From IMG/VR virus record IMGVR_UViG_3300017700_000537, positions 11,160-75,159 of that record: a DNA stretch of 64,000 nucleotides, one strand, 5' to 3'. Shown one piece after another: positions 103-63,646 of this stretch. Under the pieces are notes generated by a model. It saw only the letters and a program-made list of their open reading frames with translations, made no database searches and was not told where the DNA came from. Position 1 is the stretch's first letter; every line of letters starts with the position of its first letter. The DNA is from a virus. Taxonomy: Duplodnaviria; Caudoviricetes. The translations under genes were made by a program, and so were the position numbers.

Positions 103-300
103 ATGACAGAATCAAATCCAACCTGCCAATCCAATTGCATCCGTGATACAATGGAATCCGGCCTCTGTGATTGCTACAACAACGACGAACACCCAGCTTG
201 CAGGGAAGAAAAATGGTCAAACGGCAGATGCTTTCTGGTCATAGCTGGACTGGTTGGTGTAAGCTGGGGGATTATTTTCTGGCTTGCCGGGATTTTTTGA
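103..300 (+). CDS. small hypothetical membrane protein
   Basis: 65-aa ORF, Cys-rich N-terminus, hydrophobic C-terminal segment ending LAGIF, which is encoded by the dispersed motif. Confidence 0.5.
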   Translation: MTESNPTCQSNCIRDTMESGLCDCYNNDEHPACREEKWSNGRCFLVIAGLVGVSWGIIFWLAGIF

Positions 301-315
301 CTAAATGTAAAAGAA

Positions 316-545
316 ATGAGTAAATTCAAAATTGGGGACAAGGTGAAACATCCATGCGATTCAAGCGCTTTCGAGGTTGTTGGAGTCAGGGAAGCCGAAA
401 TTGAAATAAAGGGGATTGGTCCGGCGGGACACAACCGTGCAATCAGGCTGGATGGGTTCCGACCGAAACAGTGAAGCCTTACGATGAGACAAAGGTTGTT
501 TATTACATAAACGGGAAGCCTCACAAAAATGGAGTTCCGATTTAA
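316..545 (+). pseudogene. small phage protein with apparent 1-bp deletion
   Basis: MSKFKIGDKVKH...EIEIK continues as GDWSGGTQPCNQAGW...VPI* only if the G4 run near 411-414 is G5; the span is 230 nt, one short of a codon multiple. Confidence 0.45.
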
Positions 546-554
546 TCCACCACA

Positions 555-659
555 ATGGAACAGAAATTCTCAAACAGGGTGTGCGCAGCCATAATCGTGT
601 CGCTTGTTGTGGCCGTGGCCGCATGGGCTGCTATCTTCTTTTTTGCCGGGATTCTTTGA
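555..659 (+). CDS. 34-aa single-TM peptide
   Basis: MEQKFSNRVCAAIIVSLVVAVAAWAAIFFFAGIL*, A-rich context before ATG, fills the gap between neighbours. Confidence 0.45.
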   Translation: MEQKFSNRVCAAIIVSLVVAVAAWAAIFFFAGIL

Positions 660-662
660 CAA

Positions 663-827
663 ATGACCCGCCACCGCCCCATACCCCCTAAAAAATCAAA
701 GATAATGAAACCGTGCGCCGTCTGCGGGCTGGAATTTTCGATAGACGACCTTACTATCGACTGGAAAAACTTCCGCTTGGTGTGCAAAAAATGTAAACTA
801 CTGGCAGTTCAGGACGAAGAGGGCTGA
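663..827 (+). CDS. small Zn-ribbon-like protein
   Basis: 54 aa with CAVC...CKKC. Confidence 0.45.
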   Translation: MTRHRPIPPKKSKIMKPCAVCGLEFSIDDLTIDWKNFRLVCKKCKLLAVQDEEG

Positions 828-854
828 GTTTGCCGGGATTTTTTAAGAAATAAC

Positions 855-1154
855 ATGCGAAACGTATCGGAATTAACGACAAAAGAAGGTGCTGGCCTCT
901 GGAACGCCTGTATGCCGAAACGTTATTGCCCGTTCAACGGCAATTCCTTTCATCATCCGGCAAATGACAGGACGCCAGAAAGATTTTGCTTCATGTACGG
1001 CGTTGAGCGGCTTGGCGTACACTTTGACGGGTACATCTGGGCAGATTGCGACCTTACCAGTAGGATTGAGGTTGACGAACAGTCTGCGACGGACTACCTG
1101 ACCAGCATTGGTATTGAAAGGTTTTCACCAAAAAATCCAGGCAATGACAAATAA
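855..1154 (+). CDS. hypothetical protein
   Basis: 99-aa ORF in co-oriented, tightly packed gene run. Confidence 0.6.
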   Translation: MRNVSELTTKEGAGLWNACMPKRYCPFNGNSFHHPANDRTPERFCFMYGVERLGVHFDGYIWADCDLTSRIEVDEQSATDYLTSIGIERFSPKNPGNDK

Positions 1155-1536
1155 CCTCCACGGACGCAATTTCTCCGCAGAAATCTACGGCATACCAGTC
1201 CTTGGCACCATATCGGTGGGCAAGCTGGGCGGAATCTACCTCTGTCAGGATAGGCTTGCCGGCGGTGGCTTTAACTGTGACGATAAATTCGGCTACGAAT
1301 ACACTTGGTACGTCACGGAAGGCGGACTATGTGACGAAATCACCAACCTCAAAATCCTCCCATCCGCCCTAGAATACCACGCCCTGTTCACCAAAATCCT
1401 GTCCAATACCGGCACTGCCTGGCAGGACGACGGCAGTTACTGGGTGGTGCCGGACGAAGTGGCGGCAGAGATTACGGCTTTTATGGACAAAATAGAGGCT
1501 GTGGATGTTGAAAATCTTGGAGAATCTAAAAATTAA
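1144..1536 (+). CDS. hypothetical protein
   Basis: ORF from ATG 1144, overlapping the stop of the previous gene. Confidence 0.6.
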   Translation: MTNNLHGRNFSAEIYGIPVLGTISVGKLGGIYLCQDRLAGGGFNCDDKFGYEYTWYVTEGGLCDEITNLKILPSALEYHALFTKILSNTGTAWQDDGSYWVVPDEVAAEITAFMDKIEAVDVENLGESKN

Positions 1537-1541
1537 TAAAA

Positions 1542-1874
1542 ATGAACGCAGAAGAATTTATATCAAAGACACAGGAAGGGAGGCATGACACTGGAGCTGA
1601 CCCCAGCGGATTTTCGTATAGCCATAGCCTCGTTGTGAAATTATTGGACAACTATGCCGCCCACTGCGAGGAGTCTGCTTGGGTCGATGTGAATGATTCC
1701 TTGCCAGAACGCTGGGACGGCTATCCATTATCAAGGAATTGTTTTTTGTTTAATGGGAAGGAATATCTGATGGGATTTTACAGCTATGCGCATTCCCAGT
1801 GGGAGTCGGACGAGTACGCTCCGATTGAAGGAGTCACCCACTGGCGACCCCTCCCAAAAAATCCCGGCAAATGA
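1542..1874 (+). CDS. DUF551-like phage protein
   Basis: WVDVNDSLPE...VTHWRPLP matches the W-x-S-V-x-x-x-LP...VTHWMPLP pattern. Confidence 0.75.
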   Translation: MNAEEFISKTQEGRHDTGADPSGFSYSHSLVVKLLDNYAAHCEESAWVDVNDSLPERWDGYPLSRNCFLFNGKEYLMGFYSYAHSQWESDEYAPIEGVTHWRPLPKNPGK

Positions 1875-1974: not shown

Positions 1975-2784
1975 ATGTCAGAACTTAGAATCAAGCTCCT
2001 CGAGCTCGCCATCCAGGGTGGCGCAACAATCGACAACGCCGAGCGTGTCGCAACCGACTGGGAAAACTGGGCAGCAGATGCTCACCCTTTGAAGCTGGGT
2101 ACGCCGAGCCCAAAACCCTGTGAGCATGAATTTGAATGGGATTGCCTGATGGTTGGCTGCGAGTGCGCTCCAAAGCCTGTTGAGCCCGAAATCGACTGGG
2201 ATTTCAAGGGCGACCAATACTTGACGCACACCCCATCTGGGATTACCTTCGCCTATGCTGGCAAGCATGAGGAAGGCGGATTTTACGGAACAAGGTTGGG
2301 GTCAGGGTGTTGGGGATGGGTATCGAAAAATGGATTCCGACGAGGGGCTGGCCTGCATGACGAATCAAAAAATCCCGGCAACTCTGAACGGGAAATCGAC
2401 TGGTCCCGCCCACAACTTGTGACTTGTAGTTCAGGAATGGTTGTGCAGACAACCGGCAAACACGCAGGGTGTAGTTTCGAGGGGGTAGTAGTTGGTAGTG
2501 GCCGTTTTCGTGAAGTCGGAGAATTTATTACTGGGCTTACGAAATTAAACTTTACCTACCACGGAGAAATCCCGGCAGAACCAAAGACCACCGGCCTGAA
2601 CTTCTTGGAGGCAATGGAGGCGACCCTAAATGGGTTTACAGTTAGAAGGCCCGACAATGCGTGGTACTTATTTGACCCCGAGCAATTGTGCGTCAAGATG
2701 TCAACTGGCCGGGGTGGGCTTATTTTTCCCGTAATCTATCAAGATGACATCCTCGCCACCGACTGGCAAATCATCCCAAAATGA
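1975..2784 (+). CDS. modular protein with two EIDW repeats and a C-terminal DUF2829/Tad2-like domain
   Basis: C-terminus LNFLEAMEATLNGFTVRR...DDILATDWQII resembles the DUF2829 consensus; the start may lie at 1871 if a base is missing near 1967. Confidence 0.55.
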   Translation: MSELRIKLLELAIQGGATIDNAERVATDWENWAADAHPLKLGTPSPKPCEHEFEWDCLMVGCECAPKPVEPEIDWDFKGDQYLTHTPSGITFAYAGKHEEGGFYGTRLGSGCWGWVSKNGFRRGAGLHDESKNPGNSEREIDWSRPQLVTCSSGMVVQTTGKHAGCSFEGVVVGSGRFREVGEFITGLTKLNFTYHGEIPAEPKTTGLNFLEAMEATLNGFTVRRPDNAWYLFDPEQLCVKMSTGRGGLIFPVIYQDDILATDWQIIPK

Positions 2785-3170
2785 AAATCCAAATCCTAAA
2801 GAAAACGAACAAAGCCCTCTTCGCAAGGCGCCAGAAGGGCTTCAACGGCAGGGCTTTCGTCCTTGGCCTCGACGACAGGTTCATCGTGCTCCAGAACGCC
2901 AAAAAGAAGGATAAATCCACCGCCGTCCTCACTCACTGCGACATCGGCCTGTTCGCTCCGGCCAACGGCACAGAGCTGGTGCTTGATGCTGTCCAGCGCC
3001 ATTATCTGAAAAAATACGGCAAGGAGTTGCTATTGATTAAATCTTTCGTATCTTTGCAAAGATTTACGGAGAACGGGAAAGTTTACGAACTGAATCTGGC
3101 TCCAATCAGCAAACAAAAAGAACTGGATTTAGATGAGAATACTGAGGATATTGAAGGCGAGAAGGGTTAG
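2781..3170 (+). CDS. hypothetical protein
   Basis: 129-aa ORF with ATGA overlap to the previous gene. Confidence 0.6.
   Translation: MKIQILKKTNKALFARRQKGFNGRAFVLGLDDRFIVLQNAKKKDKSTAVLTHCDIGLFAPANGTELVLDAVQRHYLKKYGKELLLIKSFVSLQRFTENGKVYELNLAPISKQKELDLDENTEDIEGEKG
3026..3056 (+). promoter_or_regulatory. Bacteroidota sigma-A type promoter for the HTH gene
   Basis: gTTG-N19-TATCTTTG. Confidence 0.55.
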
Positions 3171-3642
3171 GATGGGTTTCCTGCAAAAAGACCTTGCAAA
3201 AAAATGCGGTGTTTCAAAGCAGGTCATCTGCGAGATAGAGACCGGCAAGCAAAGGCCTTGGAGATACACATTGGTTCGCATCTGTGATGAGCTTTCGATG
3301 CCAGACATCGACAGGGCTTCATTGTTTCGTCACTTCAAGCATGAAGATGTTTCAGGCCTGAATGACCCTATCATCATCGTCCGGTCAATCCGTAAAAAGA
3401 TAGGAATGACGCAGGACGACCTGGCGGCAAGGGTCGGGTCAAATAGGGGTGTTATCAGTAAATTCGAGAAGGGGGAACTTATTAATTTGGAACTGGCCGA
3501 GCTGATATGCGATGCGCTTGGCATCAAGGGGAAAAAGAAATCCAAAATTCTAAAATCTCTCCATGAGGATAACGAACATCAAGAACCTGAGACAGGCGTT
3601 CACGCCGGGATGCCGTGTGAACCGGCACACGATACGAATTAA
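3133..3642 (+). CDS. transcriptional regulator with two XRE/Cro-C1 HTH domains
   Basis: LKARRVRMGFLQKDLAKKCGVSKQVICEIETG and IRKKIGMTQDDLAARVGSNRGVISKFEKG. Confidence 0.85.
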   Translation: MRILRILKARRVRMGFLQKDLAKKCGVSKQVICEIETGKQRPWRYTLVRICDELSMPDIDRASLFRHFKHEDVSGLNDPIIIVRSIRKKIGMTQDDLAARVGSNRGVISKFEKGELINLELAELICDALGIKGKKKSKILKSLHEDNEHQEPETGVHAGMPCEPAHDTN

Positions 3643-3901: not shown

Positions 3902-4191
3902 CAAAAATCAATAAAAATAAAGAAGCAAGAAAGCCAATCGTCGCCAAGGTTGACCTGAAATTCATCAGGACTATCGGCAAGATGGCTGGAAAGCTCACCG
4001 CTGGCACGACCACAGCCTATTTGCTGCCGTTCATGTTCAGCCGGAACGTTGAAATGCCGGTCGGGATGTACCAAGTGACGGAACTACGGGACCTGCCCGA
4101 CAATGTGCTGGCCAGCTTTGGACTGCAAAGAATCCAAGTTCCAGTCCCCGCAGAAATTGTTGACCAAAAAATCCCGGCAAATGAGGAATAA
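3898..4191 (+). CDS. hypothetical protein
   Basis: 97-aa ORF with ATGA overlap. Confidence 0.55.
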   Translation: MTKINKNKEARKPIVAKVDLKFIRTIGKMAGKLTAGTTTAYLLPFMFSRNVEMPVGMYQVTELRDLPDNVLASFGLQRIQVPVPAEIVDQKIPANEE

Positions 4192-4771
4192 CAAATCCGG
4201 CACCTACGCCAAGGCCCCGCTTAACTACGAAGAGCTGCGCACCTTCATCGACACCATCATTAACCCAGAGTACCGCCTGATGGTAGCCATCATCACAGCG
4301 GGCTTCATGCGGGTAGGAGAGGTGGTGAAGATGCGGAAGGGCGACATCGCCAACGGCAAGATAATGGTCAGAAAGACCAAAGTCCGCCATGACAAGAACC
4401 ATCGCCCCATAAAACCCTACCGTGAGGTCCCTATGCCAGAATGGGTTCAGGAAATCGCCAACGAAGTATTGCCACTCCTAAAAAGGCAGAAGGACGAGCT
4501 GTTGTTTCAGAAACAACGTGGAGGTGGAGGGCTAACTGTGAACGGCGTGAATGACAGGCTTGACAGGATTTTCGCAAAGACCGAGACCACTCAAAAGGTC
4601 ACTTGCCACTCCCTGCGCCGCACGGCAGCCGTCAGGATTCACGACAACAGCGGGAACGACCTTCGCATGGTGCAGATAGCCTGCGACCACAAGTCCATCG
4701 CCACATCCGGCATCTACGTGATGAAGGGTAGGGCGGATTTCGAGGAAAAATACAAAGCAGCATTCGGATGA
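4181..4771 (+). CDS. tyrosine recombinase, catalytic domain only (196 aa)
   Basis: Catalytic set R (MRVGE), K (KTK), HxxR (HSLRR), H (CDH), Y (GIY); no N-terminal core-binding or arm-binding domain. Confidence 0.88.
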   Translation: MRNNKSGTYAKAPLNYEELRTFIDTIINPEYRLMVAIITAGFMRVGEVVKMRKGDIANGKIMVRKTKVRHDKNHRPIKPYREVPMPEWVQEIANEVLPLLKRQKDELLFQKQRGGGGLTVNGVNDRLDRIFAKTETTQKVTCHSLRRTAAVRIHDNSGNDLRMVQIACDHKSIATSGIYVMKGRADFEEKYKAAFG

Positions 4772-6223: not shown

Positions 6224-8215
6224 TTGTACTACCAACGAAGTAAGAAAGACACGAAAATGACAATCCAGGATGTGGTATGCTACGTACCGCCTCCTGGATT
6301 TGTATTTGACAGGTTCACCGGAGAAGTGGTGGAGGCCGAAATCTACCAGCGCTCACCAATCCAGAAAGAGCAGAAATGGGAAATCCCGCCTGCCCCAAAG
6401 GACTATGACGACAAAAGGCTGGAAGAGGAGGAGAAACAGGACTCCAACCCCAACTACGTTGACAATGAACTGGAATCCTACCGGAAACAGGAATGGTTCC
6501 GTAGGATGAACGGGTTCTGGTTTATGAACAACGGTGTGCCGACCTACATCACAGGTGCCCACTATTATTACCTCGCCCACTGGAAAATCGACATCGGCCC
6601 ACCGCACTTCTGGTATTCAGACCTTCAATCGTTCTATTTCTGGCAGTGCTGTGTGGAAGACCCGAGGTGTGGCGGAATGCTTGCGTTTGACCGAAGGCGT
6701 GCAGGCAAAAGCTGGAAGGCTTCATCCATACTCACAGAAGCCGTCAGTCGCCGCAAACGGGCCCTTGGCGGCATACAGTCCAAGAACTCCAATGACGCAA
6801 GGGACTTCTTTCAGTTGTTCGTCATAGAGGGGTTCCGGCAGCTCCCGCACTTCTTTAAGCCAGAGTACGACCGAAGCCAGGGTGACATTCCCAAGGCAGA
6901 GCTTCGTTTTTTCCCGACCACCGAGCGCGGCAGGCAAGCGAGGGGCAAGAAGAAGGTAGATGCCCTCAACTCCCGTATCAACTTCAAGGATGCCAGCGAA
7001 AGGGCCTATGATGGCAAGAAAATCCTGATAGGGGTGATGGACGAGTTCGGAAAGCTGGAGGATGCCGACCTTGAGGAAAGGCACAGGGTATTGAAGTTCT
7101 GTATCTCGGACGGCCCGGCCATTATCGGCAAGCTGCTGTACATCACCACAGTGGAGGACATCAAGAACTCCAACTGCCTTGCCAAGGCCCAGAAACTATT
7201 CCAGGAGTCCGACCCCACCAAGCGGGACGGCAACGGCAGGACAGAATCCTGGCTGTACCGCTTCAGGCTCCCGTTCTACGAATCCTACGAGATGGACGAG
7301 TACGGTATGCCAAAGCGTGAGGAATCCAAGCGCAAGGTGCAGAACACACTCGATGGCCTCATCGCAAAGGGTGACTTCGTTTCCATCGCCTCCGAGCGCC
7401 GCAAGAACCCGTGGAACGACGACGACATCTTCCGGGTGTCGGCCAACGCCCCTATCTTCGACATCATCAAGATTGCCGACCAGATTTCGCTCCTTTCGTG
7501 GAAGAAGCCGAGCGACCTCTACCGGCGTGGCAACTTCGTCTGGGAAGGTGGGCAGCGGGACACAAGGGTGAAGTTTGTTGAGATAGCCAACGGCAGGTTC
7601 CTACTAAGGACGAGAGAGATGGACGGGGTGCGCCAAAATTTGCAAAGACCAATAAATAAGCATAGATTTGCAATCGGTTGCGACCCTTTCGAGCACAGGG
7701 CGTCGTTCGAGCCGTCCAACGGGGCGGCGCACGTACTGAAGAAGTACGACCCGACCAGCCCGGACATGCAGAACGAGTACGTGATGGAATACTGCGCAAG
7801 GCCGCAACCAAACGTTTTCTTTGAGGACATGGTGCGGATGTGCGTGTACTTTGGCGCTCCGATGCTCTGTGAGGCGAACAGGATAGGCTTGATAAACTAT
7901 TTCTCCGACAGGGGATACCACAGCTTCCTCACCTGGCTACCGGGGCAAAAAAATCCCGGCATATTCGCAGGGGAGAAGTCGAAGCAGCACGGAGCGGAGC
8001 GGATGGACAACTACGTGCAGGACCACTGCCACACGATAATGTTCCCGCTGTTGCTCAAAGACCTCTCGATGTTCGACCTGTCCGACTCCACCAAGTACGA
8101 CCGGGCCATGTCGGCAATCTGGACGTTGGTGGCAGCAGGGGAGATAGCGCTGGAGGAGGAAACGCAGAAAGTAGAAGAAATAACTGACTTTTTTACGCCA
8201 CATAGGATAAGATGA
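6224..8215 (+). CDS. terL: terminase large subunit
   Basis: Walker A RRAGKS, Walker B VMDEFGK, RNase H-like nuclease IGCDPF...KYDRAMS; directly upstream of the portal; ATG start possibly 6257. Confidence 0.9.
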   Translation: MYYQRSKKDTKMTIQDVVCYVPPPGFVFDRFTGEVVEAEIYQRSPIQKEQKWEIPPAPKDYDDKRLEEEEKQDSNPNYVDNELESYRKQEWFRRMNGFWFMNNGVPTYITGAHYYYLAHWKIDIGPPHFWYSDLQSFYFWQCCVEDPRCGGMLAFDRRRAGKSWKASSILTEAVSRRKRALGGIQSKNSNDARDFFQLFVIEGFRQLPHFFKPEYDRSQGDIPKAELRFFPTTERGRQARGKKKVDALNSRINFKDASERAYDGKKILIGVMDEFGKLEDADLEERHRVLKFCISDGPAIIGKLLYITTVEDIKNSNCLAKAQKLFQESDPTKRDGNGRTESWLYRFRLPFYESYEMDEYGMPKREESKRKVQNTLDGLIAKGDFVSIASERRKNPWNDDDIFRVSANAPIFDIIKIADQISLLSWKKPSDLYRRGNFVWEGGQRDTRVKFVEIANGRFLLRTREMDGVRQNLQRPINKHRFAIGCDPFEHRASFEPSNGAAHVLKKYDPTSPDMQNEYVMEYCARPQPNVFFEDMVRMCVYFGAPMLCEANRIGLINYFSDRGYHSFLTWLPGQKNPGIFAGEKSKQHGAERMDNYVQDHCHTIMFPLLLKDLSMFDLSDSTKYDRAMSAIWTLVAAGEIALEEETQKVEEITDFFTPHRIR

Positions 8216-44762: not shown

Positions 44763-45199
44763 TTATTTGCCGGGATTTTTACATAAGGGGTAAACAATAG
44801 CCACCAATCCATCCGCTCCAATTTGTATTGCATGAACCCGGCGAATGTCGGAGTTCGTCTTTCTGTCAATACTTCACTGCCTGTGTACCCTTGATAAAAT
44901 CCTGGGTCAATTCCCGGTAATTGGTATATTTCCTTGCCGCCTATCAAATAAACGGCATATTCAGTCTGGATAGAGTCAAGGTAGCATTCTATCTTATACC
45001 CACACCACTCCCCAAGTCCCCTGAATTTTGCCATTTCTGCCGGGGAGTAGTTAGCATCTGTGCGATAATAGTCCCACTGCTCCCACACGTAGTTGTATTG
45101 GCGATATAGTGAATCCCTGTCTTCAAATTGCCACTCCGAGTATTGAGCCTGGCAGGTTAATGTGAAAAACAGCGCAATGATTGTGAAAAGATTTTTCAT
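44759..45199 (-). CDS. secreted protein
   Basis: MKNLFTIIALFFTLTCQA|Q signal peptide. Confidence 0.7.
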   Translation of the reverse strand: MKNLFTIIALFFTLTCQAQYSEWQFEDRDSLYRQYNYVWEQWDYYRTDANYSPAEMAKFRGLGEWCGYKIECYLDSIQTEYAVYLIGGKEIYQLPGIDPGFYQGYTGSEVLTERRTPTFAGFMQYKLERMDWWLLFTPYVKIPANK

Positions 45200-47988: not shown

Positions 47989-48144
47989 ATGGAAAGTATC
48001 GAAGAAGCAAATCAAGAGCTTTCAGCCATGCACAATGCAGAGCTTGGATTCTTCATAATTGATGGTAAAATGACTTGGAGCGATTATTTTAGCTACTGGA
48101 CATTGCAAGATGAAATTGATTTTATAATTGACTCTTTTCTCTAA
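47989..48144 (+). CDS. 51-aa hypothetical protein
   Basis: ORF after the leader; its stop merges with the dispersed motif. Confidence 0.5.
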   Translation: MESIEEANQELSAMHNAELGFFIIDGKMTWSDYFSYWTLQDEIDFIIDSFL

Positions 48145-48168
48145 AAAATCTCGGCAAAAACGAATAAA

Positions 48169-48796: not shown

Positions 48797-49117
48797 ATGA
48801 CCTTAATCTGGATTTTGCTAATCATCAACGCCTATTACTTTGGCCGTGCATGGGACGAAATGCCAAGCAGACCATTCAAGAAGGACGACATCTTTTTCTT
48901 TCTCATCCCGTTCATCGGATTCCTGTTTATTTTCATCTTGGCATGGATCGCGCTTGACAAGAAGTTCCGCATAGTGACACACTTGCAGGCGTACACCACA
49001 AGGGTATCGCCAGAAGACCTCGAAAAACTGATAGCGAGATACAAGAGGGGCAAAAACAAGGATATTGCTATATTCTTGCGGGTGAATGGGGTGGATGTAA
49101 AAAATCTCGGCAGATAA
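48797..49117 (+). CDS. membrane protein
   Basis: Two hydrophobic segments. Confidence 0.55.
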   Translation: MTLIWILLIINAYYFGRAWDEMPSRPFKKDDIFFFLIPFIGFLFIFILAWIALDKKFRIVTHLQAYTTRVSPEDLEKLIARYKRGKNKDIAIFLRVNGVDVKNLGR

Positions 49118-49129
49118 AAATAAAATAAA

Positions 49130-49402
49130 ATGGGTATCAAAAAAGTAGCAAGTCCAGTAAACAAAGCCAAGAATCTGTTCTTAAAGTGGCTAAAGGACAG
49201 GGAAGCGACATACATTGAGGAGTTCGAAGGAGAGAATGACGGAGAATGGGATTATTACAGGCATGTGGATGGTTTTATAGGTGACAGGCTATACGTGGCC
49301 TGTTTTCACGTCTGGCGTGGCAAGGTTTCGATTGACTACTCTGATGAAGAAAATAGGTACAATGGCATGAGCGTAGAAGAATTCTTACAGTTGATTTCTT
49401 GA
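49130..49402 (+). CDS. hypothetical protein
   Basis: 90-aa ORF with A-rich pre-ATG context. Confidence 0.55.
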   Translation: MGIKKVASPVNKAKNLFLKWLKDREATYIEEFEGENDGEWDYYRHVDGFIGDRLYVACFHVWRGKVSIDYSDEENRYNGMSVEEFLQLIS

Positions 49403-49438
49403 AAAATCTCGGCAAACAATAAAGTTTTTCCGAGATTT

Positions 49439-49675
49439 TTTGGAATAACGGAAGAAGGTTGTAGATTTGTGAATCGTTAAGACGGTCGAAGGGGGTGACG
49501 CCCTGGGTGGAAATCTGAACAGAAAAGAAAATATTGATGTAAGTTTCATCGAAGAAGCCTCATCATTGAGTATCGGGAAGGTGTGTAGTGGTTTTCCATT
49601 TCATACTTTTCTGTTCAGCCCGGCTGCCTGTCACGCAGCCCACACCGCCTGATACTCAATGCTGAGGCTTTTTTT
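49439..49675 (+). promoter_or_regulatory. promoter and ~200-nt structured leader/attenuator
   Basis: TTTG-N19-TAGATTTG; 13-bp perfect IR 49515-49527/49606-49618 interleaved with a ~28-bp IR 49555-49585/49641-49670, then T7. Confidence 0.7.
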
Positions 49676-51172: not shown

Positions 51173-51947
51173 CAATTTAGACGAGGTTGCAAGCGTGGGG
51201 CTGCTTCCTGTAAATAGCCTAATCAATGCGGAATGCCTCGCTGCTATGAGTTTTATTGCAGACAACAGCATTGATATGATTTGTTGCGATCTCCCTTATG
51301 GCACGACAATTTGCAAGTGGGACGCAATAATCCCATTCGAGCCACTTTGGGAGCAATACGGAAGGATATGCAAACCAAATGCCGCAATAGTCCTGACCGC
51401 TTCACAGCCATTCACGTCAGCTTTGATTATGAGCAAGCCAAAATGGTTTAGGCACGAATGGATTTGGCAGAAAAACAGGGGCAGCAACTTTGCGCTCCTG
51501 AAATGGCAGCCATTCAAGGAGCATGAAAGTGTTTTGGTTTTTAGCAAGGATACGGCCAAGTATTACCCGATAAAAGAAGAAAGGAGTGAAAGTGGTAAAA
51601 GCCGATGCGCCTACACCTTCCATAACAAAGTCACAAGTGGGGTGATAAATAATGAAACATTCTACAATCAGGATGGAGACAGGAGGAAATTGGATGAAGG
51701 ATTAAGAAATCCAAGTAGCATACAAAAGTTCAATACAGAAGTCGGCCTACACCCCACCCAAAAGCCCGTCGCCCTCTGCGAGTACTTAATCAAAACCTAC
51801 ACCAATGAGGGCGAAACGGTCCTGGATAATTGCATGGGCAGCGGCACCACAGGTGTTGCAGCGAAAAATCTCGGCAGAAACTTCATCGGCATCGAAAAGG
51901 ACGAAACATATTTCAAAACAGCATCCGCGAGGGTGGCAAAAGCGTGA
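51159..51947 (+). CDS. N4/N6 DNA methyltransferase (beta class)
   Basis: CDLPYG motif IV, HPTQKP, VLDNCMGSGTTG motif I, FIGIEKD. Confidence 0.92.
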   Translation: MNIFNNLDEVASVGLLPVNSLINAECLAAMSFIADNSIDMICCDLPYGTTICKWDAIIPFEPLWEQYGRICKPNAAIVLTASQPFTSALIMSKPKWFRHEWIWQKNRGSNFALLKWQPFKEHESVLVFSKDTAKYYPIKEERSESGKSRCAYTFHNKVTSGVINNETFYNQDGDRRKLDEGLRNPSSIQKFNTEVGLHPTQKPVALCEYLIKTYTNEGETVLDNCMGSGTTGVAAKNLGRNFIGIEKDETYFKTASARVAKA

Positions 51948-55067: not shown

Positions 55068-55111
55068 TAATCAATGATTTGCCGAGATTTTTTAACTTAA
55101 AAACGATAAAA

Positions 55112-55516
55112 ATGACAAATATTTTATTCAGAGGTAGGCGACTGGACAACGGAGAGTGGGTCAATGGAGACTTCATCCTCGGCGTCGGCGCAAAGCATGG
55201 GCATTCGTTCATACTCCCAAGGTATCACATCATGCCTGACAAATGCGGGATTGATGGATGGGATGTTGACCCATCAACGGTAGGCAGAAAGAGGTGTCTG
55301 ACCGAAAGAAACGGAGATGACATTTTCTCTGGGGACTTGATGATGTACGACGGGAAGATTTACAAGGTGGTTGATGACGGCTGGAGATTTAGGCTTGAAA
55401 GAAATCTGGTGGAATTCGGCGACAACCATGATGTCGTATTGGACGAGGATACTGCTTTCGATTCCTTATTGTGGGGGAATTTCCATGATAATTCGAAAAA
55501 TTTCGGCAATGACTAG
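55112..55516 (+). CDS. YopX family protein
   Basis: ILFRGRRLDNGEWVNG, VDPSTVG, DIFSGD, WGNFHDN. Confidence 0.8.
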   Translation: MTNILFRGRRLDNGEWVNGDFILGVGAKHGHSFILPRYHIMPDKCGIDGWDVDPSTVGRKRCLTERNGDDIFSGDLMMYDGKIYKVVDDGWRFRLERNLVEFGDNHDVVLDEDTAFDSLLWGNFHDNSKNFGND

Positions 55517-56012
55517 GAAGCCCAAGTCACAGCCCAAACAAGTATCCCAAGCCGACCTCCTGGCCTTCTTCAACAAGCCCGAAGAACCGGCCACTCCATC
55601 CATTGCCAGAACCCAAAAAATCCCGGCAGCCGACGAAAAAAGGCAAAGGGAACTGTCAGAAATCGGCTGCACAAAAGTCCGCCTCTACACAAAAACGGTC
55701 ACAGTCCTCGGCTGGCGGGAGAAAAGAAAGCACGTTGAGGTCCAAACAGAGAACGGGATAGCTGCCTACGACTGGCCGTTCAAGGTTGTTTTCCCGTTCA
55801 TAAACCTCGAAATCATCGAAGACTGCGGCTATCTCGAAATGTTCTCAAACGGCGAGGAATACGTCATCGAGGGCAAAAGGTACGGCGTCAGGGATGATGT
55901 CGTCTGGGTTGGTGGGAAGCGGTATTTGAGCAGCAAGGAGAAGGTGGATTTTGGGTCTTTCCGGGATTTTTTGGCAGGCAAGGAATTTATTTTGAAGAAA
56001 ACGATAATTTAA
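55509..56012 (+). CDS. hypothetical protein
   Basis: ORF from ATG 55509, overlapping the YopX end. Confidence 0.55.
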   Translation: MTRKPKSQPKQVSQADLLAFFNKPEEPATPSIARTQKIPAADEKRQRELSEIGCTKVRLYTKTVTVLGWREKRKHVEVQTENGIAAYDWPFKVVFPFINLEIIEDCGYLEMFSNGEEYVIEGKRYGVRDDVVWVGGKRYLSSKEKVDFGSFRDFLAGKEFILKKTII

Positions 56013-56133: not shown

Positions 56134-56237
56134 CCCCACCAAAGAAAAGCGAAAAGTCGCCTATCCCGGCAGAGCTAATTGTATGCGATTGGGGTGCTTG
56201 CCGGGATTTTTTAACTTTCAAAATCAATAAAAATATC

Positions 56238-58099: not shown

Positions 58100-59328
58100 T
58101 GATAGCAGAATCAATCGAAATCGAAAACTTCGGAGGTATGCAGAAGTTCAAGGTCAACTTCGACCCTCGCATCACCTACGTCACCGGACCGAACATGGCC
58201 GGAAAATCGACCATCGCTAAAACCGCCTTCTTCTTCGGCCTAGAGGGCATTGCCGAAAAAGGCACCCACTACAAAGGCCGTGGCAACTTCGTCGGAGAAT
58301 GGGGGGATGAAGCCAAAACAATCATCAAGCTGCGAGACGAGCACGGCTCCTATACCGTCACCCGTGCCATGAACGACAAGAAGCAGACGCAGTTCTCCGT
58401 GGTGAGCGACACTGGCCGTAGCCTTGATCAGGCATGGCTTAATAAACTATTCCAGAGCTTAATGATAAGCCCGCTGGACTTCGCTAACATGCACGAGAAA
58501 GAACAGGCAAAACAGCTTGGAATCGACACGTCCGAGTATGACGAGCGGATACTTGCGCTGAAGATGGACTTCACCTTTATCAACGGCACCTTGCGGGATT
58601 TCGGAGAAATAATAATCCCTGAAAAAGTGGAATACGTTGATGTATCCGAGTTAAACCGGCAGAAGAACGAGGTGCTGGCGTTCAATCAGCAACAGCGGGT
58701 CAGGACGAATGAGCTTTCTAAGAAAAACGGGGAAATAGCTACCCTGGATATTCATATCTCAAAACTGCAACAAGAGCTTCAAATAGCATTGGTGTCTAGG
58801 GAGAACAGGGTAAAAGAGAAGAACGCACTTACATTGCCAGAGCCAGAGAAGGATACCAGTGGCTTCGACAAGGTAATGGAAGAGATGGATAAGACCAACA
58901 AAGATGCTATGTTCTATGGGATTGCCCTTGAAAAATCCCGGCAAAAGGCTGTAAAAGAAGAAGAACTTTCCGCCAACAAACTTGCCCAAAAACAACTCCA
59001 AGAAGAAAAAGTGGCCTACCTGCAAACACTCGACCTTCCGTTCAGCACCATGACCATTGACGACAACGGCGGGCTTATGATGGACGGGAAGTACATCCGG
59101 GAGCCGTTCTTCAGCTCTGGGGAGCTTTGGGCCGTGATACCGAGGATAATCGCCAAAATGCAGCCGGAATTCAAATACATATTTATTCAAGGCTGGAACA
59201 TGATGGACAAAAAGCACCAGAAGAACCTCGTGGAAGACATGCTCGGCCTTGGTTTCCAGCTCTGCATCGAAGTGGTGGACGAAACCGAGAATGGCGGGAT
59301 AATAGTTTTGACGGAGCTTGCTTCTTAA
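58099..59328 (+). CDS. SMC/Rad50-like ABC ATPase
   Basis: IEIENFGG, GPNMAGKST Walker A, coiled coil, FSSGE signature-like motif. Confidence 0.8.
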   Translation: MIAESIEIENFGGMQKFKVNFDPRITYVTGPNMAGKSTIAKTAFFFGLEGIAEKGTHYKGRGNFVGEWGDEAKTIIKLRDEHGSYTVTRAMNDKKQTQFSVVSDTGRSLDQAWLNKLFQSLMISPLDFANMHEKEQAKQLGIDTSEYDERILALKMDFTFINGTLRDFGEIIIPEKVEYVDVSELNRQKNEVLAFNQQQRVRTNELSKKNGEIATLDIHISKLQQELQIALVSRENRVKEKNALTLPEPEKDTSGFDKVMEEMDKTNKDAMFYGIALEKSRQKAVKEEELSANKLAQKQLQEEKVAYLQTLDLPFSTMTIDDNGGLMMDGKYIREPFFSSGELWAVIPRIIAKMQPEFKYIFIQGWNMMDKKHQKNLVEDMLGLGFQLCIEVVDETENGGIIVLTELAS

Positions 59329-60010: not shown

Positions 60011-60388
60011 ATGGAAAAACAACTAAGCCAAGTCAAGGAATTCCACAAGGCATTCGGGTCAAGGATAGGCAAACATCCTGGCCTGCCAGAAGACAAAGAA
60101 CTCGCGCTGAGGCAGAAACTCATAATCGAAGAAGCCTGCGAGGTCAGCGATGAGCTGATTGAGGGAAAAAGCATTGTCAGGACCGCAAAAGAACTTGCCG
60201 ACCTGATGTACGTGACACTTGGCACCGTCCTGTCGCTCGGCCTACAATCGGAGTTCGAGCGGTGTTTTGATGCCGTCCACGCTTCCAATATGTCGAAACT
60301 GGAGGACGGCAAGCCTGTCTATCGGGAGGACGGGAAAGTGTTGAAGTCATCCAGTTATAAACCTGCGGACTTATCTTTTTTGGAATGA
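60011..60388 (+). CDS. MazG-like/PRA-PH nucleotide pyrophosphohydrolase
   Basis: VKEFHKAF, LIIEEACE, KELADLMYV, VHASNMSKL, DGKVLK. Confidence 0.85.
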   Translation: MEKQLSQVKEFHKAFGSRIGKHPGLPEDKELALRQKLIIEEACEVSDELIEGKSIVRTAKELADLMYVTLGTVLSLGLQSEFERCFDAVHASNMSKLEDGKPVYREDGKVLKSSSYKPADLSFLE

Positions 60389-60849
60389 AATACGAATTCA
60401 CAGCCCACTGGAACCGTGACACAAAGGAATTGAAGATAGTGAATTTGCAGCTCCTAATCGAACGGCTTTCCGAGGAGCAGAACACCTGCTACCTTGACGG
60501 AACTCTGGAAGAAGAATTCCAATGGAAATCCGACGAACAGCGTGGGTATCTCTTTGCTGAGATTGGCGTAAAGGCTTTGCTTGGGTACAGGTCAAGGGGT
60601 ACAAACATCAAGTGCAAAGAAATGGCACTTGACTACTTGATGTTGGAGCCTGAGATTGACTGTGTGAACAGGATAATAAACGAAACGACAGGCGAAGTAT
60701 TGGCGAGGGTTCCGAAGAGCATAGCCAGCCTTTCCAAGCGGCAGACTAGGGACTTTATTTCGGATGCAGTACAGTTTATCGAAATAGACCTTGGGGTGCA
60801 GGTGGATTCACCGGAAACTTGGAAGGAGAGAAGATTGAGTAAAAAATAA
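60385..60849 (+). CDS. hypothetical protein, NinB-like (weak)
   Basis: KSDEQRGYLF...SIASLSKRQTRDFI resembles the NinB/Orf pattern. Confidence 0.45.
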   Translation: MKYEFTAHWNRDTKELKIVNLQLLIERLSEEQNTCYLDGTLEEEFQWKSDEQRGYLFAEIGVKALLGYRSRGTNIKCKEMALDYLMLEPEIDCVNRIINETTGEVLARVPKSIASLSKRQTRDFISDAVQFIEIDLGVQVDSPETWKERRLSKK

Positions 60850-60856: not shown

Positions 60857-61147
60857 ATGCTACCAACTAAAAAATCCCGGCAAAAGCCCCGAATCCTTCT
60901 CTCCGACATCACCAAGCAAATAGAGGAAGAGTTCGGAGGAATAGCCGTCAACGACAGGCAACAGCCGAACATCAAGGTAAAAAAGGTATTCTGCTGGCTA
61001 GCACTCGAACTCGGCCACAACCCTGTGCTCGTCGGCGCTCGATGCGGACTGAACAGGGCGTCGGTGATACACCATCACAAGGCGATGAAGGACTTGATTA
61101 AGTTTGTGGGGACGGCAAAAGAGATGATAGATGAAGCAAGTATTTGA
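60857..61147 (+). CDS. DnaA C-terminal-like HTH protein
   Basis: KKVFCWLALELG...VGARCGLNRASVIHH. Confidence 0.55.
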   Translation: MLPTKKSRQKPRILLSDITKQIEEEFGGIAVNDRQQPNIKVKKVFCWLALELGHNPVLVGARCGLNRASVIHHHKAMKDLIKFVGTAKEMIDEASI

Positions 61148-61644: not shown

Positions 61645-62079
61645 TTGAGTTTAAAAAATCTCAGCAGTGCAATGGCCCTGCTTTTGTTGCCAACCTATTT
61701 AGCAAGTGTTACTTCGGACGGGGCGTTTTCAGCCCCTGTGGCTTGTCAGGAAGCCTATTCGGAAGATGTGTATGCCCTGGCAGCGATTCTCTACTCAGAA
61801 TGCCGTGGGGAGCCAAGAGAAGGCAGAATGATGGTCGCCCATGCAGTGCGCAACCGGGCGAAATACAAAGGAATAAGTGTGGAGATGGCCACCCGTTCAG
61901 GGATGAAGGGCGGAAGGCTCGAACCGGAGCTGGTCGAGGAGGCAGCGATGTGGCTGCAAGGAGAGGTCTGTCACGGTTATCGTCATTGGCTGAACACGAA
62001 AACAGCGACAGACCTCAAGTGGAAGCGGTATGCGTTAACTAGGTGTGGAGTTGTCGTCGGAAGGCATTTCTTTTTCTGA
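61645..62079 (+). CDS. SleB/Hydrolase_2 cell-wall hydrolase (endolysin candidate)
   Basis: LAAILYSECRGEPREGRMMVAHAVRNR, GRHFFF; hydrophobic N-terminus. Confidence 0.8.
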   Translation: MSLKNLSSAMALLLLPTYLASVTSDGAFSAPVACQEAYSEDVYALAAILYSECRGEPREGRMMVAHAVRNRAKYKGISVEMATRSGMKGGRLEPELVEEAAMWLQGEVCHGYRHWLNTKTATDLKWKRYALTRCGVVVGRHFFF

Positions 62080-62093
62080 CTTGCTGGGATTTT

Positions 62094-62357
62094 TTAGTCA
62101 GTTAGGAGCGTAGCCAGGATTCGGTATCGACCAGTCAAGTCAATCTTGGCAAAATCTTCATCCAAATCTGATAACGCACCTATCAATCGGTATGGCTCAT
62201 CCCTTTCAACACAGTTTCTTGCCTTTCCAGTTATTGACATCGTAAGTTCAGTGCTAAACTCTGGGCAAATCTCTTTGATTGTCTTGTAGGTTTTATGAAC
62301 CCTGCTTGTCGGAACAGGATGACCCATTGCGTCAAATCCTGATAAAGTATTTTCCAT
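62094..62357 (-). CDS. hypothetical protein
   Basis: 87-aa ORF from ATG 62357. Confidence 0.5.
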   Translation of the reverse strand: MENTLSGFDAMGHPVPTSRVHKTYKTIKEICPEFSTELTMSITGKARNCVERDEPYRLIGALSDLDEDFAKIDLTGRYRILATLLTD

Positions 62358-62392
62358 TTTTATTGATTTGATTGTTAAAAAATCCCGGCCAA

Positions 62393-62635
62393 TCACCTGA
62401 CCCGCCGGTAGAGTTCCACTTTCTTCTTCGCTTTAAGTATCTCAGCCTCTGTCATCTCCTTCATCGGAAACATGGACTTGTTTATCCACACCTCCTTGTG
62501 TTCCGGGAAGCCGACGGCCCTTACTGTCCAGCAGCCGCCGACTTCTCCGGTTATCAAACATTTCCTTCCAAACAGCCAGTTTGTGGTGATGGCTGTGTAT
62601 GTGAATATGGTTCCTATCATTTCAAATTTCGACAA
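62393..62635 (-). CDS. hypothetical protein
   Basis: 80-aa ORF. Confidence 0.5.
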   Translation of the reverse strand: MSKFEMIGTIFTYTAITTNWLFGRKCLITGEVGGCWTVRAVGFPEHKEVWINKSMFPMKEMTEAEILKAKKKVELYRRVR

Positions 62636-62825
62636 TCTTGTGAGGTTGATTGTGTATCACATTTTCAAGTACAGTGCCGTCGTCAAGTTTTACGGAGAAG
62701 TCAGGCATTATCGTGCCATAGAAATGGCCAACGTACCTTACCCTATTCCCTTCCTTGAAGTTCCTGTCCCGACCTCTTATCTGGTCGAACACGGTGATAA
62801 TTCTTCTTTCAAATTCTCTTTTCAT
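62622..62825 (-). CDS. hypothetical protein
   Basis: 67-aa ORF whose ATG follows the dispersed motif. Confidence 0.5.
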   Translation of the reverse strand: MKREFERRIITVFDQIRGRDRNFKEGNRVRYVGHFYGTIMPDFSVKLDDGTVLENVIHNQPHKIVEI

Positions 62826-63048
62826 TGCCGGGATTTTTTAAGAAAGATTCCAAATCTTCCTCAGTTTCAAATTCAATTTCAGAATCAACGGATGGGTAGT
62901 ATTTTATTTTGCCCTTCCCGACGTACTTAGTCACTCTAAATGCTCCGGTGTTAGCACATTTGTACTGGGAGTTCCCTCCCGATATTCCAGCGCCATCATA
63001 CCTACCGCTAAAATGAGCTTGAAACTTCCAATCAAAAAAGGTATTCAT
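62809..63048 (-). CDS. hypothetical protein
   Basis: 79-aa ORF. Confidence 0.5.
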   Translation of the reverse strand: MNTFFDWKFQAHFSGRYDGAGISGGNSQYKCANTGAFRVTKYVGKGKIKYYPSVDSEIEFETEEDLESFLKNPGNEKRI

Positions 63049-63070
63049 GTTGTGGTACTTTTACGGCCAA

Positions 63071-63328
63071 TCAGCCAATCTGGTTCATGAAATCTTCATC
63101 GGTAGTCCCCCATCCCTTTCGGTACGGGTATTCATCCTTGGCCAGCAACGGCCTATTGCGCCTGCTTAGGAGTATCTGGGAGCAGACGTTGGCTGCGTCG
63201 TCCTCATTGTATTTCCTGAACTTGGATTCGAGGGAGTGGAGTTCTTCGTCCGTGTGCTTGGACAGTTTCTCGTTCAGTGTGGATTTGAATTTGTCGAACA
63301 GCATAGTTGTGGGTATTTGTGCCTTCAC
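63071..63328 (-). CDS. hypothetical protein
   Basis: 85-aa ORF. Confidence 0.5.
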   Translation of the reverse strand: MKAQIPTTMLFDKFKSTLNEKLSKHTDEELHSLESKFRKYNEDDAANVCSQILLSRRNRPLLAKDEYPYRKGWGTTDEDFMNQIG

Positions 63329-63406
63329 CTGAACAGCTCGTACAGAATTACTGCTTGGGCTGTGAGCAGGATGAGGCGGATTAGATTCTTCATTTTCCGG
63401 GATTTT

Positions 63407-63646
63407 TTAGTCGTTATTGTTGACAGCTTTTTCAAACTGCCTGTCCATCGAAACCTTGGCCCGAAGGAACTCGCTACGCTTTTTCTCTCCGATGCCCTCT
63501 ATGAGCCACGCAGCCGCATTGTGCAGGAAGGAGCCTTTCTCCATGTTGTCGTACATCCACTGAACGTAGTCCTTATCTTCCTTGAACACGTCCTTCAATT
63601 TCCGGCCTTTGTATTTTCCAAAATTCAGTTTAGTTTCCTTGGCCAT
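63407..63646 (-). CDS. DUF3820/ExoX-C-terminal-like small protein
   Basis: LNFGKYKGRKLKDV...DYVQWM. Confidence 0.65.
   Translation of the reverse strand: MAKETKLNFGKYKGRKLKDVFKEDKDYVQWMYDNMEKGSFLHNAAAWLIEGIGEKKRSEFLRAKVSMDRQFEKAVNNND

Follow-up and report, generated by a model that had tools for sequence, protein, structure and literature searches.

What kind of signal is a short DNA word that recurs almost unchanged at the gene borders of a phage genome and is nearly missing from its virion genes? The word was found in a 75,159-bp record from an uncultured phage of Bacteroidota-type bacteria, and the window analysed here is the 64,000-nt stretch spanning bases 11160-75159 of that record. 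A first-pass annotation had listed 18 exact copies of AAAATCYCGGC, and all of them were found at the positions and on the strands given, against 0.10 expected from dinucleotide shuffles. With an order-5 Markov background, trained on the window itself with the motif copies left in, the expectation was 1.1 and the enrichment held (P about 3e-16, window). When one mismatch was allowed, the window contained 36 copies against 2.97 expected, including every one-mismatch site listed before, together with extra sites at 27753, 41158, 43815 and 61655. The 11 kb ahead of the window contained another 14 copies. The longer form AAAAATCYCGGCAA occurs 39 times over the full 75,159 bp, as 24 exact and 15 one-mismatch copies. 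The aligned copies share a conserved stretch of about 18 nt, YYA-AAAAATCYCGGCAA-A, and showed neither a dyad nor conserved flanks. No other word is strongly repeated in this phage genome.

The copies are concentrated in the non-structural arms, at 0.96 per kb versus 0.03 per kb in the virion block (34-fold), and indeed only one of the 18 exact copies lies in the virion block, at 7950 in TerL, as had been claimed. The median distance from a copy to a gene border is 20.5 nt, versus 103 nt for random positions, and 53% of the arm copies (random, 15%) lie within 25 nt of a border, which bears out the earlier statement that more than half are so placed around starts and stops. Furthermore, 50% of the arm copies are non-coding, versus 16% of random positions; for each of these three measures, 0 of 5000 permutations was as extreme. 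About 40% of the arm junctions have a copy, and 11 copies lie deep within genes, with every border over 40 nt away. The genic copies span three sense frames (KNPG/KNLG, KIPA, KSRQ) and two antisense frames (AGIF, FRDF), so that the reported use of several frames and both strands stands. Selection on the word acts at the DNA level. Orientation with respect to transcription is mixed yet patterned, with 20 antisense and 19 sense copies, which tells against the word being an RNA signal, part of a core promoter or a simple terminator, and copies along the phage genome show no consistent strand polarity. Individual copies in the window are as follows.

284..297 (-): exact, antisense to + genes; reverse-complement copy ends at the stop of ORF 151-300; hairpin before, T-run after, following ATG at 316
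643..656 (-): one-mismatch copy AAGAATCCCGGCAA, antisense, 3' end of small ORF 555-659
830..843 (-): exact, antisense, intergenic, in a hairpin and T-run context; 2 nt past the stop of ORF 705-827 and 11 nt ahead of the ATG at 855
1131..1144 (+): one-mismatch, sense; ATG of gene 1144-1536 at +13
1857..1870 (+): exact, sense; supplies the final codons (KNPGK*) of the DUF551 gene, 1542-1874 (Pfam E 6.5e-06), whose reported LPKNPGK ending was seen; ATG of gene 1871-2092 at +14; counterpart copy in the relative L293 at 340
2368..2381 (+): exact, sense, within gene 1975-2784 (KNPGN)
4167..4180 (+): exact, sense; final codons of gene 3898-4191 (QKIPAN); ATG of a small tyrosine recombinase at +14; motif also present at this junction in L293 (2768), in unalignable flanks
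7949..7962 (+): one-mismatch 14-mer (exact 11-mer) within the large terminase; its peptide QKNPGIF is family-conserved, and the copy may be a coding coincidence
44767..44780 (-): exact, sense in a leftward operon; 3' end of gene 44759-45199 (VKIPAN), 5 nt ahead of the ATG of the 35-aa ORF 44655-44762
48144..48157 (+): exact, TCTCGG variant, sense; first A residues overlapped by the TAA stop of ORF 47989-48144; next ATG at +25
49100..49113 (+): one-mismatch 14-mer (exact 11-mer), sense; 3' end of gene 48797-49117 (KNLGR); next ATG at +30
49402..49440: inverted pair, exact + copy at 49402 and one-mismatch - copy at 49427, 11-nt spacer, after the TGA stop of gene 49130-49402; hairpin with A-/T-runs, fold z about -4; the T-run of the - copy is the TTTG of a promoter-like TTTG-N20-TAGATTTG
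51864..51877 (+): one-mismatch 14-mer within a DNA methyltransferase gene (AAKNLGRNFIG), possibly a coding coincidence
55079..55092 (-): exact, TCTCGG variant, antisense, intergenic; 11 nt past the primase stop (55067), 19 nt ahead of the ATG at 55112
55496..55509 (+): one-mismatch, sense; ATG of gene 55509-56012 at +13
55616..55629 (+): one-mismatch 14-mer (exact 11-mer), sense, within gene 55509-56012 (QKIPAA)
55958..55971 (-): one-mismatch, antisense, within gene 55509-56012
56198..56211 (-): exact, antisense, in the 340-nt spacer ahead of the helicase gene; pairs with an upstream CCCGGCAG into a hairpin plus T-run
58931..58944 (+): exact, sense, within gene 58099-59328 (EKSRQ)
60870..60883 (+): exact, sense, codons 5-9 of gene 60857-61147 (KKSRQ), 20 nt past the stop of gene 60385-60849
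62081..62094 (-): one-mismatch; first A residues overlapped by the stop of a minus-strand 87-aa ORF (about 62097-62357), around which this copy and the next form an inverted pair
62378..62391 (+): one-mismatch 14-mer (exact 11-mer), antisense to the 87-aa ORF, 20 nt upstream of its ATG; hairpin plus T-run context
62825..62838 (-): exact, sense; within the final codons of gene 62809-63048 (KNPGN); ATG of gene 62622-62825 at +13
63394..63407 (-): one-mismatch, sense; first A residues overlapped by the stop of gene 63407-63646

The word is conserved in both close relatives compared, L309 and L293, the latter with a TerL 78% identical to that of this phage. L293 has two exact copies and one near copy in 4.7 kb of arm; 10 kb of structural genes contained none. 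Two of the L293 copies stand at junctions matching those of this phage, with diverged flanks. In distant TerL relatives, as well as in about 406 Bacteroidota genomes, the word is absent or at chance level.

Three interpretations had been offered at first: a site for a phage protein, a crossover site for a recombinase, or a host-recognised signal. The first fits best, because of the asymmetry, the length of about 18 bp, the DNA-level selection, the position at arm gene borders and the conservation in the closest relatives, whereas the crossover site is weak and the host signal unsupported. The reading preferred here, tentatively, is that the copies are operators or resemble stoperators, and that a DNA-binding protein of the phage occupies them; this may well be the case. 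The word, (Y)YAAAAAATCYCGGCAA(A), would serve as a double-stranded-DNA recognition site for a phage-made, sequence-specific protein, and about 40 such sites would let one protein reach nearly every transcription unit or junction of the early and middle genes, in a network of the operator or stoperator type. In the loose early arms, the copies lie 5-38 nt upstream of starts, past the preceding terminator hairpin, and would there overlap promoters or leaders; in the tight operons, they fill the stop-start junctions, where the bound protein could hinder read-through by RNA polymerase. Two encoded proteins are candidates for the binder.

3133..3642 (+): tandem-HTH protein, 169 aa, two Cro/C1-type HTH_3 domains in a single chain
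4181..4771 (+): tyrosine recombinase, 196 aa, catalytic domain only, second candidate

An asymmetric site of about 18 bp suits a monomer that reads DNA through two different heads, which makes the tandem-HTH protein the leading candidate. Its helices occupy residues 2-67 and 79-128, and the chain is predicted to fold as two XRE domains. Its gene has a Bacteroidota-type promoter (TTG-N-TAnnTTTG) 77 nt upstream; no copy of the word was found at this promoter, and thus nothing points to autoregulation, which counts against the operator reading. Orthologues with well-conserved recognition-helix regions are encoded in L293 and L309, and the co-occurrence of gene and motif in three syntenic relatives weakly suggests that this protein is the binder.

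Alternatively, and in our view unlikely, the host machinery itself might read the word as a cis-acting junction signal, without any dedicated phage protein. The antisense form of the word, UUGCCGGGAUUUUUU, would then weakly terminate or pause transcription between early genes, and its sense form, an A-run plus CAA ahead of ATG, would be a Bacteroidota-style A-rich (Kozak-like) start context. Indeed, the phage genes have A-rich leaders and no Shine-Dalgarno, an ATG lies at exactly +13 or +14 in five window copies and two L293 copies, and a stop codon lies at -2 in five or six copies. In unrelated phages, the same 14-mer forms one half of a bidirectional terminator; a distant relative, L218, has start codons abutted by a motif of its own, and the start-associated sequences (SAS) of Cluster K mycobacteriophages provide a precedent (PMC3203893). 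In addition, eight or nine copies in antisense orientation are part of a hairpin plus T-run structure, which could work without a protein, a point against the operator reading. However, most copies have no hairpin partner and fold z-scores average only -0.9 (antisense) and -0.3 (sense), only about 7 of the 39 copies abut an ATG, and the 11 deeply genic copies are far from borders. The same 18 letters would need selection by two unrelated functions, and the strict conservation of CYCGGC would be left unexplained; we know of no translation role in Bacteroidota for this GC-rich core. A promoter element of a phage-specific transcription class is improbable, whether as an activator site like the MotA box or as the sequence that a sigma factor or RNA polymerase of the phage recognises. 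It would suit the restriction to the non-structural arms, the antisense copies 5-38 nt upstream of starts and downstream of terminators, and the finding of only six canonical TTG-N-TAnnTTTG promoters in the phage, which leaves most genes without a recognisable host promoter. On the other hand, the orientation is mixed, the distance to ATG and to -7/-10-like boxes varies, and sense copies that abut or overlap starts leave no room for a promoter; Pfam and PHROGs detected no sigma factor or RNA polymerase in the phage, and a DxDGD-type motif is missing from the 2064-aa virion protein. An overlap between one copy and the -33 box of a Bacteroidota-type promoter speaks for the operator reading; no fixed spacing from the copies to any promoter box was found, which counts against it.

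A linker through which small gene cassettes are gained, lost or inverted appears rather less likely than a junction signal; the 196-aa tyrosine recombinase would act on the word, or the word would provide short homology to the Sak-type single-strand annealing protein and RecE-like exonuclease, both of which the phage also encodes. The recombinase has all seven catalytic residues (R44, E47, K67, H143, R146, H170, Y179), and a copy abuts its start codon both in this phage and in L293 (two of the three phages). A roughly 300-bp extra segment of L293 lies between two direct copies where the window has one, the DUF551 gene, missing in L293, sits between a degenerate and an exact copy, inverted copies bracket several genes (e.g. 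62081/62378 and 55079/55496), and the TCTCGG variant is restricted to one low-GC module. However, a tyrosine recombinase core site usually consists of inverted binding arms around a spacer, and the word has no such arms. Furthermore, with 39 active sites pointing both ways, an essential genome would be scrambled. Gene order is fully collinear in this phage, L293 and L309. Indels relative to these two phages have copies on both sides in 2/5 cases, on one side in 1/5 and on neither in 2/5, and the flanked fraction is close to chance, since about 40% of the arm junctions have copies anyway. Very improbable is a host-recognised signal, such as Chi, KOPS, a DNA-uptake sequence or a host transcription-factor site. 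In 401 genomes (about 1.5 Gb) from the order of Terrimonas rubra, presumably Chitinophagales, the word was about four times commoner than its reversed control. Nevertheless, the 109 matches, at most four per genome and never clustered, amount to about 0.07 per Mb in these candidate host genomes versus about 320 per Mb in the phage; together with the lack of strand polarity, this indirect test already weakly refutes a host signal.

As for the operator or stoperator reading, such dispersed-site layouts are known in a few other phages and apparently undescribed for this phage group. At the stoperators of L5 gp71 and the TipsytheTRex repressor, a monomer reads an asymmetric site with two domains (PMC9283540). 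The word resembles these sites of Cluster A mycobacteriophages in being short and asymmetric, with a 13-14 bp core and more than 20 near-identical dispersed copies in promoters and short intergenic spaces, often over stop or start codons (PMC9283540). The Cluster A binder is a two-domain monomer, comprising an HTH plus a Stoperator domain (PMC9283540); the candidate here likewise joins two domains in a single chain, but both are predicted XRE-type HTH domains. L5 sites point one way with respect to transcription, and reversal abolishes repression (PMC9283540), whereas the near-equal numbers of antisense and sense copies here, mirror-like around the control region, count against the operator reading. 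L5 sites also occur among virion genes (PMC9283540), whereas the virion block here is almost empty, and the Cluster A hosts and the host of this phage belong to different phyla. The copies in TerL and the methyltransferase gene may merely follow from conserved KN(P/L)G peptides, a further point against the operator reading.

The C1 repressor of P1 has 22 dispersed asymmetric 17-bp operators, similar to the word in site length (17-18 bp), asymmetry and dispersed copy number, but lying mainly at promoters (PMC8546580), whereas many copies here lie in stop-start junctions or within genes; no C1 homologue was found in this phage. The Cluster K SAS, whose function is still unknown, are likewise asymmetric repeats of the 13-bp class, confined to the non-structural half, a few nucleotides from ATG and sometimes holding the upstream stop, absent from the host and kept across subclusters (PMC3203893). 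Unlike the word, half of whose copies are antisense, with few abutting ATG and no Shine-Dalgarno use, almost all SAS share one orientation, 3-7 bp before the start, with a Shine-Dalgarno core (PMC3203893). Finally, the SPBRE of SPbeta are also intergenic elements that recur in a phage encoding a tyrosine-recombinase-fold protein; this protein, the repressor MrpR, binds the SPBRE and has lost most catalytic residues and kept its core-binding domain (PMC10516654), whereas the recombinase here has all catalytic residues without a core-binding domain.

The dispersed word is real: selection acts on it as DNA, and it is specific to this small phage lineage. Every one of the 18 exact AAAATCYCGGC copies was recovered at the positions listed in the first-pass annotation, against 0.10 expected from shuffles, and 36 matches were detected in the window when one mismatch was allowed, against 3 expected. 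Enrichment over a Markov model, which that annotation had proposed as a test of its own claim, was likewise confirmed: an order-5 model, trained on the window itself with the word copies included, expects 1.1 of the 18 copies (P about 3e-16). In the whole genome, the 14-mer AAAAATCYCGGCAA is the sole strongly repeated word, with 24 exact and 15 one-mismatch copies. A per-position count over these 39 copies showed conservation from -3 to +14, corresponding to Y-Y-A, AAAAATCYCGGCAA and A (about 18 nt; full 18-mer form TTAAAAAATCCCGGCAAA), and their logo contained neither two-fold symmetry nor conserved flanks beyond these positions. Since conservation stops at -3 and +14 and no other word is comparably repeated, a longer repeat or mobile element was rejected. 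In window 48144-55079, where the GC content goes down to 41-42%, all copies are of the TCTCGG variant, and almost all copies elsewhere carry TCCCGG; this confinement of TCTCGG suggests that the low-GC module derived from a relative carrying that variant.

Genes were called with a periodic Markov model and then corrected by hand. The density of the word is 0.96 copies/kb in the 39 kb of non-structural arms versus 0.03/kb in the 36-kb virion block, and a gene-border permutation test upheld the reported placement at gene junctions, with a median distance of 20.5 nt compared with 103 nt for random arm positions. Furthermore, 53% of the copies lie within 25 nt of a gene border (15% expected) and 50% are non-coding (16% expected); the border-distance, ≤25-nt and non-coding values were each reached by 0 of 5000 permutations. 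The copies that overlap genes are read as several peptides, namely KN(P/L)G, KIPA or KSRQ in sense and (F/L)AGIF or FRDF in antisense, and selection therefore acts on the nucleic acid and not on the protein, a conclusion of the annotation that the varied reading frames and the use of both strands bear out. The copies in the genes for the large terminase (TerL; family-conserved QKNPGIF) and a methyltransferase (AAKNLGRNFIG) may be by-products of the conserved peptides.

Relative to the local genes, 19 of the 39 copies are sense and 20 antisense. The sense copies sit in tightly packed operons in two arrangements, in which either the stop codon of the upstream gene begins at -2 (TAAAAAATC or TGAAAAATC) or the following ATG lies exactly at +13 or +14. 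The antisense copies are mostly located in 60-230-nt spacers, 5-38 nt upstream of the next ATG and usually 3' of a terminator-like hairpin that closes the previous gene, and 8-9 of them pair with a nearby CCGGC(A) to form a hairpin, followed by the T-run of the word itself.

Copies of the word by local arrangement
Window 48144, 49402, 62081 and 63394, and genome 3163: sense, upstream stop codon beginning at -2
Window 1131, 1857, 4167, 55496 and 62825: sense, following ATG at +13 or +14
Genome 5402, 7646 and 10206, window 284, 830, 56198 and 62378, and the inverted pair at window 49402/49427: hairpin followed by the T-run

The pair at 49402/49427 is the sole inverted pair among the copies. Most copies lack a pairing partner, and the mean fold z is -0.9 for the antisense and -0.3 for the sense copies. 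The word as a whole does not match an intrinsic terminator, as only 8-9 of 39 copies form a GC-rich hairpin immediately followed by a U-run and such a run is missing from the RNA of the sense copies; nor does it fit the conserved 3' half of terminators, given the same scarcity of partners and a fold z near zero for most copies. A core promoter element was also rejected, since the antisense copies lie at variable distances from the ATG and from any -7 or -10-like box, the orientation is mixed, and the canonical promoters lie elsewhere; the only copy overlapping a good promoter is that at window 49427 (TTTG-N20-TAGATTTG). A promoter for a phage RNA polymerase was discarded as well, because neither an RNA polymerase nor a sigma factor was found with Pfam and PHROGs and the 2064-aa virion protein contains no DxDGD-type motif.

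We then consider the distribution of the word among phages and hosts. A scan of IMG/VR and JGI metagenomes yielded only distant TerL relatives (identity ≤45%), all without the word, and searching IMG/VR with the helicase gave no relative. The TerL relatives P0002, P0009, P0010 and P0014 are 55-85% identical, and among P0008, P0009, P0019, P0038 and P0067 several terminases are about 1020-1060 aa long, with Hint and homing-endonuclease (intein) domains. Two closer relatives were present among species-representative genomes: L293, a 22.9-kb contig binned into a Saccharibacteria MAG (TerL 78% identical), and L309, a 3.7-kb contig (TerL N-terminus 59% identical). In L293, two exact copies and a near copy fall within 4.7 kb of arm, and its 10 kb of structural genes are free of the word; L309 carries one exact copy. 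The copies at L293:340 and L293:2768 occupy matching junctions, the former directly against the start codon (ATG) of the gene 1871-2092 orthologue and the latter directly against that of the small recombinase; at the latter, ACCAAAAAATCYCGGCAA is kept while the flanks are no longer alignable, and L309 has only a degenerate remnant. To judge from these alignments, the matching-junction copies represent a phylogenetic footprint, on very few genomes. Exact-word scans of IMG/VR gave single chance matches, plus a terminator hairpin in unrelated phages. Each of the IMG/VR records G012-G021 (21-110 kb; via L043, L074, L336, L027, L052, L390, L372, L363, L360 and L352) has exactly one AAAAATCCCGGCAA-N10-TTGTCGGGATTTTT, a bidirectional terminator-like hairpin shared by a family of large phages that are otherwise unrelated. 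Repeated k-mers in the distant relatives L132 and L196 proved to be collagen-like coding repeats and were set aside.

The annotation had also offered a host-recognised signal of the Chi, KOPS or uptake type, which found no support, as the word is not enriched in 406 Bacteroidota genomes taken as candidate hosts. In five of these, the density of its 12-mer is about 1 per Mb. Across the order of Terrimonas rubra (401 genomes, about 1.5 Gb), the 14-mer gave 109 matches, or about 0.07 per Mb, with at most 4 copies per genome and none clustered; the density in the phage is about 320 copies per Mb. The host is very probably a member of Bacteroidota, because the TerL relatives sit in Bacteroidota phages and genomes: the cultured ones are exclusively phages of Flavobacterium, Cellulophaga, Tenacibaculum and Maribacter (identity ≤31%), and further ones are encoded by prophages or contigs in the genomes of Chitinophagaceae, Saprospiraceae and Flavobacteriales. 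Bacteroidota have unusual promoters and no Shine-Dalgarno sequences, and to our knowledge gene regulation in their phages is almost unstudied. In this phage, a Shine-Dalgarno sequence precedes no gene, the leaders are A-rich, and the Bacteroidota-type promoter TTG-N17-23-TAnnTTTG occurs at a few operon starts. Only six matches to it lie within 120 nt upstream of a gene (window 3056, 10537, 39856, 41886, 45791(-) and 57858), including one that precedes the tandem-HTH gene and another from which the leftward operon starts.

That the copies are genome-wide docking sites through which a DNA-binding protein of the phage controls the non-structural genes is the reading that we tentatively prefer, at somewhat less than even probability. 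It was among the options listed in the annotation and emerged as the best-supported mechanism, although binding itself is something we infer. The first candidate binder is the product of window 3133-3642, which contains two HTH_3 domains. Its AlphaFold2 model (pLDDT 79) consists of two five-helix Cro/C1-type domains in one chain, each half matching controller proteins and the 434 and P22 repressors. Orthologues are encoded at the same position in L293 and L309 with only 36-43% overall identity, yet the recognition-helix regions are well conserved, and the canonical promoter that precedes the gene is 77 nt away. A chain with two unlike DNA-reading heads should recognise an asymmetric site of roughly 18 nt, as the two heads of the TipsytheTRex repressor, also in one chain, do at asymmetric stoperators (PMC9283540).

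The closest known systems are the L5-type stoperators (PMC9283540) and the 22 asymmetric C1 operators of phage P1 (PMC8546580). Like the word, the Cluster A stoperators are many near-identical, dispersed, asymmetric 13-14-bp sites, and they lie in promoters and short intergenic spaces as the word lies near gene borders. Their repressor is a monomer with two DNA-binding domains that stops elongation, a role for which the tandem-HTH protein is the candidate here, although it has no homology with L5 gp71. However, the orientation of stoperators strictly follows transcription, whereas the word is 20 antisense to 19 sense, with regional clustering. In placement the word also resembles the start-associated sequences (SAS) of Cluster K phages (PMC3203893), but these lie 3-7 bp upstream of starts in one orientation and have a Shine-Dalgarno-like core, whereas the word abuts an ATG in about 7 of 39 copies, is antisense in half and has no GGAG-like core. 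Because the one-way orientation that defines both stoperators and SAS fails, the word works like them at most and is a member of neither family. In the collection of papers searched, no motif of this type was described for phages of Flavobacterium or Cellulophaga. If the tandem-HTH protein binds, it would constitute a second, independently evolved L5-like solution, with a two-domain monomer on an asymmetric site. One 18-bp word marking nearly every non-structural transcription unit is a direct experimental handle: a single oligonucleotide could serve to capture the regulator, whose regulon is predicted by the map of sites. In L218:744-3703, from a distant marine relative (TerL 39% identical), a different word, ACCTAGAAATTATG, is present in eight copies, each abutting a start codon in a run of consecutive small genes on one strand, an SAS-like layout.

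That the copies instead serve as recombination linkers for the exchange of small gene cassettes, which would explain such exchange of small early genes in this phage group, is unlikely. A predicted recombinase is indeed encoded nearby: window 4181-4771 specifies a 196-aa tyrosine-recombinase catalytic domain without a core-binding domain, its nearest solved relatives being XerH and XerA, and R44, E47, K67, H143, R146, H170 and Y179 are invariant in the three orthologues, so that it appears catalytically competent by its residues. With these residues intact, the protein is therefore unlike MrpR of SPbeta, an inactive integrase-fold repressor (PMC10516654), and a role of that kind was ruled out. 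Genes for a Sak annealing protein and a RecE-like exonuclease are also present in the phage, an extra segment of about 300 bp in L293 lies between direct copies at 2461 and 2768, and the DUF551 gene, absent from L293, is located between a degenerate and an exact copy, again in direct orientation. Nevertheless, of five indels relative to L293 and L309, two are flanked by copies on both sides, a third has a copy on a single side and the remaining two have none, an association close to chance because about 40% of the arm junctions carry a copy regardless, and gene order is collinear across all three phages. Moreover, the Xer/dif, integron attC and shufflon sfx sites have inverted arms or an attC hairpin, whereas the word is asymmetric with unconserved flanks, showing neither inverted arms around a 6-8-bp crossover spacer nor a folded attC layout. 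The small recombinase, which may be an invertase, a resolvase or an integrase, is about the size of FimB/FimE, and all three phages keep it immediately 5' of the packaging genes; the Sak-type single-strand annealing protein and then the RecE-like exonuclease (window 45845-47049) form a recombination module that starts the rightward replication arm.

Patterned orientation is the one feature that could lift the word, read as protein-binding sites, beyond the known kinds of network. Two divergent arms leave an ORF-free control region at genome 7.9-9.1 kb, and on both arms the proximal copies are antisense (13 of 15) and the distal copies sense (9 of 10), a split with Fisher's exact p = 2e-4 for a boundary picked after seeing the data. 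Of the mechanisms known, a protein roadblock that works one way is the only one for which orientation would matter. It is conceivable, at long odds, that the copies are two-way polar barriers, at which a monomeric two-headed protein on an asymmetric site would stop RNA polymerase from one side; the antisense copies near genome 8-9 kb would then shield the switch region from read-in, and the outer sense copies would gate early-to-middle read-through. We know of no phage for which an orientation-coded temporal programme of this sort has been described, and the mixed but ordered orientation could reveal whether roadblock polarity is a general principle.

The phage record, from IMG/VR, is 75,159 bp long (the window covers bases 11160-75159) and has a 123-bp repeat at both ends, which is probably the overlap of a circular assembly, because an ORF of about 440-466 codons runs across it (window 63630-64000 into L292:1-1069 in whole-record coordinates, minus strand). 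This ORF holds the PolA-like strings IDIKNCQMKMLA and RSEAKIATFRALY and had no match in Pfam, PHROG or PDB sequences; known RNA families and tRNAs were likewise absent from the window. Just before the window, the control region (L292:7922-9071) comprises 1.1 kb without ORFs and adjoins an 83-aa XRE gene (9072-9323). It includes one copy of the word (8193) and G-rich runs, together with 240 nt rich in purines and two strong inverted repeats, of which one is CTGTGATTAATCACA...; it is probably an early or lysogeny switch and perhaps an origin. Among the minus-strand early genes at L292:1287-7441, most carry the box CACACTTAAAAT 20-25 nt upstream of an ATG that is itself immediately preceded by ACC, and each gene is followed by its own terminator-like hairpin, an arrangement that looks like one promoter per gene.
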